A stretch of DNA of 64,000 nucleotides from Shigella phage sb2. The stretch lies in the sequence record PQ666540; one strand, 5' to 3'. A program made the translations under genes and the position numbers. The notes under the pieces were generated by a model that was not told the DNA's origin, did not search any database, and saw nothing but the letters and a program-made list of their open reading frames with translations. Below are positions 5,719-6,376 of this stretch, piece by piece. The stretch's first letter is position 1. Each line of letters begins with the position of its first letter.

Positions 5719-5758
5719 TTGATTGTGGGGCTTCGGCCCCCTATTCTCGAGGAAACAA

Positions 5759-6376
5759 GTGATTATTTCTAAGTTTGTTAAAGTGAAAATTGTACCATCA
5801 AATTTTAAACATTATCAATCAAAGGGTTATAAATTAACACCTCTTGGAGCGGTTAAACATGGATTTAGGTATTATGAAATTGATGTTAAAGTTGAAGACA
5901 TTAAAGGTAATACCGCGTATGTAAAATGCCGTTGCGATAAATGTGGAATTGAATATAACCAACGCATTGGAAGAAACACTGATATTTGTCGTGATTGCCG
6001 TCATAAAGATAAAATGCGCAATAATTCATATGGTTCCGCGAATAAAGGAAAAACAGTAGAATGTATGCATGGCGTAAATCATCCAAGATGGAACCCAAAT
6101 AAATCTGAAATGCGTGAATATATTTCATTGGTATATAAAGAAACTCGTAAGCATAAGAAAATCTGGTCAAAATGGCCAAATGCTGATAAAATAGGAGTGT
6201 GTGGTGTAGAAGGTGCTTACCAACTCGATCATAAAGTATCTATCAAATATGGATTTGATAATTTAATTCCGCTGGAAATTATAGGCGGTATAAAAAATTT
6301 AGAAATAATCACTTGGGAATCTAACCGAGAAAAATCAAAAAGAAATAGCGTAGATCTTTGGGATTTACTAGAATGA
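5759..6376 (+). CDS. free-standing HNH-family homing-endonuclease-like protein
   Basis: ORF between sheath and tube genes; Cys-rich zinc-finger-like CRCDKCG...CRDCRH plus HNH-like QLDHKVSIKYGFDN...N; probable GTG start at 5759 six nt after GAGG (track start 5723 is TTG). Confidence 0.7.
   Translation: MIISKFVKVKIVPSNFKHYQSKGYKLTPLGAVKHGFRYYEIDVKVEDIKGNTAYVKCRCDKCGIEYNQRIGRNTDICRDCRHKDKMRNNSYGSANKGKTVECMHGVNHPRWNPNKSEMREYISLVYKETRKHKKIWSKWPNADKIGVCGVEGAYQLDHKVSIKYGFDNLIPLEIIGGIKNLEIITWESNREKSKRNSVDLWDLLE

Follow-up and report, generated by a model that had tools for sequence, protein, structure and literature searches.

A putative homing-endonuclease-like cassette between the tail sheath and tail tube genes of Shigella phage sb2

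The window analysed here is a stretch of 64,000 nucleotides from Shigella phage sb2 (record PQ666540) and represents a segment of a Tequatrovirus (T4-like) genome. Its tail sheath gene (gene 18) and tail tube gene (gene 19) are separated by 765 bp versus 116 bp in T4, in agreement with an initial annotation of the sequence, which had taken the gap at this place to be short in T4. The gap carries an open reading frame (ORF) of 205 to 217 amino acids, which the same annotation interpreted as a free-standing HNH endonuclease gene within a mobile cassette. The ORF itself is real, being present in the ORF list and having an in-frame GTG codon accompanied by a GAGG motif. The locus is organised as follows, in coordinates of the window:

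3703-3710: gene 18 late promoter
3739-5718, plus strand: gene 18 (tail sheath), the left flank of the cassette
5720-6375, plus strand: cassette inserted relative to T4, 656 bp in place of the 7 bp ACGGTGC, after the TAA-T of gene 18
5723-6376, plus strand: cassette ORF read from a TTG start, 217 amino acids (ORF list)
5727-5740, plus strand: upstream hairpin GGGGC-UUCG-GCCCC, cassette-borne, directly 3' of the gene 18 stop
5749-5754, plus strand: Shine-Dalgarno-like GAGGAA, with its GAGG core at 5749-5752, 6 nt 5' of the GTG at 5759
5759-6376, plus strand: cassette ORF read from the GTG start, 205 amino acids plus TGA
5759-6058, plus strand: N-terminal domain (residues 1-100), a beta-rich region and a C4 zinc ribbon (C59, C62, C77, C80), RB3-type allele A
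6059-6373, plus strand: C-terminal HNH-like (DH-N-N) domain
6384-6401, plus strand: downstream hairpin GGCCUGU-UUCG-GCAGGCC, native T4 18-19 intergenic sequence, outside the cassette
6403-6410 and 6462-6469, plus strand: two late promoters TATAAATA, native T4, 5' of gene 19, outside the cassette
6484-6975, plus strand: gene 19 (tail tube), the right flank of the cassette

The GTG codon is the start annotated for the RB3, T6 and ECML-134 orthologues (RB3_165 in the first and ORF19.1 in the second), and the alignment shows its GAGG ribosome-binding site to be kept also in RB3, ADUt and ECML-134. The window ORF, which is 96.6% identical to RB3_165, is included in PHROG 5104, a family of unknown function. 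Both segments quoted in the initial annotation, the Cys-rich KCRCDKCG...ICRDCRH and QLDHKVSIKYGFDN...ITWESN (QLDH...N...N), are found in it.

The boundaries of the cassette were set by a MAFFT alignment with T4, RB3 and ADUt and by a blastn comparison of the window with 60 kb of T4. In the latter, 5720-6375 is the sole unmatched block of the late structural region; the flanks are otherwise collinear with T4, both gene 18 and gene 19 are undisturbed, and the window from 6376 on is native T4 intergenic DNA. No target-site duplication was seen on reading the junction sequences. The sole sequence repeated at the two junctions is the pentamer TGATT (5720-5724 and 6374-6378), which empty sites lack.

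Occupancy of the site was counted with a 230-bp query across the empty junction of T4, which matched 501 phage records. The junction was contiguous, and thus empty, in 382 of them, T4 included, and split by an insertion in the other 119. The cassette is both optional and sharply bounded. About 24% of the sequenced relatives carry it at 18/19 and about 76% are without it; T6 and RB3 are among the carriers, so that the site is not an undescribed one, as had been suggested in the initial annotation. Two alleles account for the split records: the RB3-type allele A (approximately 47-48 records; RB3, RB5-7, RB9, RB10, HY03, pSs-1, ADUt and others) and the T6-type allele B (70 records; T6, ECML-134, PP01, Yersinia phage PST and others). 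An exact-pattern scan of IMG/VR returned five loci, all of them empty.

A tblastn search found the ORF in 243 phage records, and in 232 of these a single place covers 80% or more of the protein. At least eight other T4-like groups have a homologue immediately behind the sheath gene, for example in Dhakavirus PSD9, Gelderlandvirus STP4-a and S16, Klebsiella phage Roth16, Winklervirus CHI14, Acinetobacter Hadassahvirus AbTZA1, Aeromonas Ceceduovirus AS-zj and Sinorhizobium phage phiM12 (Emdodecavirus); in phiM12 the position is kept though gp18 is only 34% identical. A more distant case is a 323-aa hypothetical protein of Klebsiella jumbo phage phiKp_21 (1718-2689), which overlaps the end of nrdA and is homologous to the family in its C-terminal HNH-like domain only (45% identity over 53 amino acids). 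The nrdA gene is a classical homing-endonuclease target, and the phiKp_21 gene looks like a free-standing homing-endonuclease gene at this site.

Most records annotate the ORF as "hypothetical protein"; among the records seen, two carry other labels of relevance, "homing endonuclease" (ADUt) and "HNH endonuclease" (Ptacy1496). In MW883059, AP018814, PQ571308 and PQ657790, allele B is variously labelled 'holin', 'putative head morphogenesis protein' and 'type II restriction endonuclease'. The gp100.1 of Salmonella phage S16 (NC_020416) is annotated as 106 amino acids from an internal ATG, which is a start-codon annotation error: the ORF lies at 3601-4221, and a decaying truncated copy was rejected for this phage, as the 206-aa GTG ORF is present there in full and does not differ from its STP4-a counterpart. 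Three further records, MG010123 ('Staphylococcus phage SAJK-IND') and OR584013 and PV654520 ('Pseudomonas phages'), have Tequatrovirus gene 18-19 sequences 96-98% identical to those of coliphages; probably their hosts are mislabelled or contaminated samples were sequenced.

The history of the ORF differs from that of its neighbours. Between the window and ECML-134, which carries allele B, gp18 is 98.6% and gp19 100% identical, whereas the ORF is 55% identical overall, with only 33% identity in its N-terminal and 75% in its C-terminal half. The N-terminal half of allele A is 57-61% identical to the versions of a Klebsiella phage and of a Salmonella Gelderlandvirus, and is thus closer to them than to allele B, which belongs to its own genus. 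ORF similarities are therefore incongruent with those of the flanking genes. The nucleotide identity of the window copy to the two alleles also changes along its length:

5786-6150: 99.2-99.7% to allele A, 45% to allele B
6151-6270: 92.5-93.3% to allele A, 96.7% to allele B
6301-6376 (the last 76 nt): 98.7% to allele A, 98.7% to allele B

The window copy is an A/B recombinant, with the N-terminal domain of allele A and an allele-B-like stretch in the HNH domain. It is also joined to a gene 18 3' flank of the empty-site type, unlike the cassettes of the five database cassette-bearing genomes examined. Two synonymous gene 18 single-nucleotide polymorphisms (AAT and GTC), approximately 50-55 bp upstream, occur in all five of those genomes and in none of nine empty ones, and are not present in the window; their sharing looks like linkage or co-conversion rather than immunity.

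The 3' end of gene 18 (5634-5688) shows dense, mostly synonymous polymorphism, with at least three haplotypes among Tequatroviruses that are independent of the cassette. In the window the haplotype is the T4-like one, altered by three private changes, one of which is Arg to Ser (AGA to AGT) at 5637. This patch was considered as a cleavage or immunity site and rejected, as empty-site phages carry both major haplotypes.

The protein appears to consist of two domains. The zinc-finger-like segment pointed out in the initial annotation is in place: of the four zinc-ribbon cysteines, three (C59, C62 and C77) are invariant in an alignment of 37 family members with identities down to 33%. The N-terminal domain is presumed to be the module for DNA binding and specificity; in family members it matches phrog_12131 'homing endonuclease' (E 2.4e-5), and sub-threshold matches to the DUF4379 treble-clef zinc finger were found in 12 of the 37. 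In the C-terminal domain, D157, H158, N180, L181, W186, N189 and K192 are likewise invariant in all 37 members. Strand beta1 (154-158) ends in D157-H158, N180 precedes beta2 (181-185), and the following helix (186-192) bears N189, R190 and K192. The AlphaFold2 model (pLDDT 87.6) has the beta-beta-alpha-metal topology of the HNH / His-Me finger fold. The expected residues are also in position, namely a His ending beta1 with an Asp before it, a structural Asn, and a metal-binding Asn nine residues later, with roles as known for Cas9 and I-HmuI.

Alignment by hhalign placed the DH, N and NRxKS elements on D839-H840, N854 and N863-S867 (N863-R-G-K-S) of SpCas9 with E 0.025; the SpCas9 query sequence agrees with PDB entries. 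When family members are scanned one by one, their C-terminal domains give sub-threshold matches to "HNH endonuclease" PHROGs with E 2e-4 to 1e-3; taken together, the matches of members to HNH-annotated PHROGs span E 2e-4 to 8e-3. Residues ~49-192 of family members match an "endonuclease VII" PHROG (E 8.7e-8). Viral fold neighbours in BFVD are mainly uncharacterised, some being labelled as HNH or homing endonuclease and some as DUF7487, and structural neighbours include the T5 SciA site-specific nicking endonuclease and the GVE2 HNH protein. A profile search of 1.84 billion representative proteins, with one sequence per 50%-identity cluster, yielded 6,745 relatives at E <= 0.001, and some longer relatives combine a DUF7487 N-terminal region with the C-terminal domain of the family. 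Curated models are silent on this domain; since several independent weaker lines from sequence and model agree, an HNH-type fold was assigned to it and is regarded as very likely.

Presence or absence at one fixed site, precise boundaries and a gene history incongruent with the flanks, all of which would be expected of a homing endonuclease, are thus observed for the cassette, as is its division into two divergent alleles. It is probably a free-standing, homing-endonuclease-like selfish cassette that was inserted between the gene 18 stop and the native 18-19 hairpin. The mobile-cassette part of the initial annotation accords with these observations, while endonuclease activity and homing of the protein are predicted from its sequence, its structural model and analogy.

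Several points weigh against this interpretation, and some of them concern the nuclease domain. A profile search of the window protein gave no HNH match at curated thresholds in Pfam or NCBIfam, so that the HNH assignment of the initial annotation holds for the residues, the Cas9 alignment and the PHROG matches and not for curated models. HNH_4 was touched by one of the 37 members (E 0.078). PDB sequence searches with the single protein and with family profiles yielded no HNH protein, the sole sequence-profile signals there being those of the zinc ribbon to kinetoplastid mS66 and to C2H2 fingers; Foldseek against PDB gave noise only. The C-terminal-domain profile has no detectable similarity to T4 MobE by hhalign (probability 0.07%). 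The lack of a curated HNH match and the restriction of PDB signals to the zinc ribbon would suit a zinc-ribbon nucleic-acid-binding protein with a non-catalytic HNH-like motif, for example a regulator of genes 18 and 19 or an RNA-binding protein. Against it, D157, H158, N180 and N189 are invariant down to 33% identity, the pattern expected of an active site, and the fold and PHROG neighbours of the ORF product are nucleases. This explanation is quite improbable.

The other points concern the behaviour of the gene. No target site could be identified from the junction comparisons, the polymorphic patch at 5634-5688 being also found in empty-site phages, and no experiment on this gene family was found in the literature searched. 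Nearly all copies are intact, as the coverage of the tblastn places shows, and across genera the divergence of the ORF roughly tracks that of the phages; these two features are as compatible with a useful gene that has been retained as with a purely selfish one. The main rival explanation is, therefore, an accessory nuclease that benefits the phage, is kept at 18/19 by selection and has been lost repeatedly. It might be a site-specific nickase seeding recombination or replication, a nickase whose nicks allow the gp45 clamp to activate late transcription of the tail genes, or a nuclease that excludes competitor phages. The conservation of the after-sheath position from Tequatrovirus to Sinorhizobium phage phiM12 also speaks for it, as does the presence of T5 SciA among the structural neighbours. 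However, the absence of the ORF from 76% of the Tequatrovirus-like records, including T4, means that it is dispensable, and N-terminal halves of such low identity between nearly identical flanks, with allele A nearer to other genera, point to horizontal replacement. Nothing supports any specific beneficial role, and this explanation is considered rather unlikely.

A further possibility, which is rated as improbable, is that the ORF belongs to an ancient site-locked lineage of nickases that has resided at the sheath/tube junction since before the divergence of T4-like phages, with two Tequatrovirus alleles that differ in their DNA-binding domains competing for the site and a nick that may serve the phage. 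This nick might, for example, provide entry for the gp45 clamp that activates late tail-gene transcription, or create a recombination hotspot; neither role is specifically supported.

The structural match to the GVE2 HNH protein, which presumably works with the GVE2 phage terminase, brings in yet another explanation, namely an HNH accessory protein that assists the terminase, like those of HK97-like cos phages. The ORF does lie in the packaging/portal neighbourhood, in the order 16-17-18-[ORF]-19-20 (gene 17 at 1875-3707 and gene 20 at 7047-8633). Against this, T4 and 76% of the relatives are without the ORF, the sheath gene stands between it and the terminase genes, and T4 packages by a headful mechanism with the nuclease of gp17 itself. 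A role in packaging is thus scarcely credible.

For the preferred reading, that of a homing-endonuclease-like cassette, the flanking signals indicate how the gene may be expressed. Both hairpins fold and the two late promoters are in place, as described in the initial annotation, which read the bracketing hairpins and re-initiating promoters as the signature of a mobile cassette. This signature has to be abandoned: the downstream hairpin and the two late promoters do not differ between carriers of the ORF and phages that lack it, such as T4, and among these elements only the upstream hairpin arrived with the cassette. It occurs in both allele A and allele B, and in the window it has one additional C at 5737. 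The 57-nt stretch around it does not beat shuffled sequences (fold z -0.4), and the downstream hairpin does (fold z -2.4). The upstream hairpin is not a canonical intrinsic terminator because no U tract follows it, and a terminator scan found no intrinsic terminator in the cassette. A promoter scan of the cassette revealed neither TATAAATA nor a sigma-70-like site above chance; the ORF therefore belongs to the late transcription unit of gene 18.

Late transcripts starting at the promoter of gene 18 would thus read through the 5' UUCG hairpin into the ORF, and translation would begin at the GTG codon; the lack of a promoter, the 5' hairpin and the GTG start might all keep expression low. In the protein, the beta-rich region and the zinc ribbon may recognise DNA, and the C-terminal half may act as a nuclease of the DH...N...N subtype of HNH (His-Me finger) enzymes. 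Analogy with solved HNH structures would make H158 the general base, D157 and N189 the ligands of the metal ion, and N180 a brace for the hairpin. In a mixed infection, the enzyme might nick or cut the cassette-free 18/19 junction or nearby conserved sequence of gene 18 or 19, and recombination-dependent repair of the T4 type could then copy the cassette from the donor genome.

The seg, mob and intron endonucleases of T4 that would lie in the region compared, six in number, are absent from the window, as the initial annotation supposed: segD, segE, the nrdB intron with I-TevIII, mobE with nrdB.1, the td intron with I-TevI, and segG. Their empty places are at ~12385-12446, 17506-17526, 45789-46521, 49650 and 53392-53428, with the flanking genes present in collinear order. 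This leaves the 18/19 cassette as the sole endonuclease-like insertion found in 1-56886, the part of the window compared with T4.

The window has some other features that deserve mention. Gene 18, although essential, contains two in-frame stops, at 4120-4122 (codon 128, GAA to TAA) and 5560-5562 (codon 608, TGC to TGA), and gene 20 has a private TGG to TTG change (Trp to Leu) at 7093. All three are G:C to T:A changes found in none of five relatives; the other 18 private changes of gene 18 are all synonymous and in the third position. They may have arisen through errors in sequencing or assembly, as artefacts of damage, or in a nonsense-mutant stock. Three segments are without a T4 counterpart (27939-29996, 39756-40283 and 41919-42239, all on the minus strand). 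The first is a 685-aa ORF adjoining alt, which is taken for a second Alt-like paralogue, the neighbouring stretch 29313-30006 being ~69% identical to T4 alt; the other two, in the cd-pseT region, are ORFs of 175 and 106 amino acids, respectively. The uvsW homologue (17526-19245) matches T4 UvsW in two frames (residues 2-511 and 505-574), indicating either a frameshift or a uvsW/uvsW.1 split.

T-even phages are a classical model for free-standing homing endonucleases. The window ORF is a recombinant member of an already known, uncharacterised family, and its insertion site is not new. The importance of the cassette is modest, as the known workings of such elements are unchanged by it. Its nuclease domain represents a large phage family, with the 6,745 representatives mentioned above, that no curated HNH model captures, and phage annotation would gain from its recognition as an HNH-type module. 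The 18/19 site may also serve as a clean natural homing system, with two divergent alleles and their recombinant on one side and hundreds of relatives with an empty site on the other. The element is discussed neither in the 2010 review PMC2988022 nor in its companion genome review PMC2993671, and 18/19 is not among the T4 endonuclease sites tabulated in the former.

The closest counterparts of the window ORF are RB3_165 and T6 ORF19.1, which share its 18-19 position, GTG start and 5' hairpin; no characterised function was found for either in the literature searched. The cassette also resembles the genes of the T4 Mob proteins (MobA-E), the free-standing HNH homing endonucleases of T-even phages (PMC2988022), in standing free between conserved T-even genes and in being optional among close relatives, and the proteins themselves are alike in being small and modular, with predicted HNH chemistry. 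In contrast to Mob, the window ORF falls in a separate PHROG. Membership in the T4 Mob family was rejected in a comparison limited to MobE, with which hhalign gave no similarity and tblastn found nothing in the window. F-CphI of the T4-like cyanophage S-PM2 is likewise encoded by a free-standing gene and has a C-terminal His-Me finger, and, as noted, some members of the window family match the 'endonuclease VII' PHROG. The DHHRN / F-CphI pattern is CX2-4C ... DHDH ... R ... CX2C-N (PMC6083498); in the window family the motif reads DHKV, a second His is missing and the active site is not flanked by Cys pairs, and membership in DHHRN (F-CphI / Endo VII) was rejected. A close relationship to Hef is argued against by tblastn, in which a second place was found in only one of the 243 records. 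Pfam DUF7487 (PF24308), a domain with no known function and no mention found in the literature searched, is linked to the family through longer relatives and BFVD fold neighbours, the window protein itself giving no match.

The nearest parallel for the nuclease domain is the HNH domain of SpCas9, which is of the DH...N...N subtype of the HNH / His-Me finger superfamily, the subtype to which I-HmuI presumably belongs as well. The two share the D-H pair ending beta1, the second Asn nine residues on from the first and the NRxKS helix start. They differ in that the insert between beta1 and beta2 is 8 residues longer in the window protein and contains two short helices, and in that this protein would depend on a zinc-ribbon N-terminal domain, rather than on RNA guidance.
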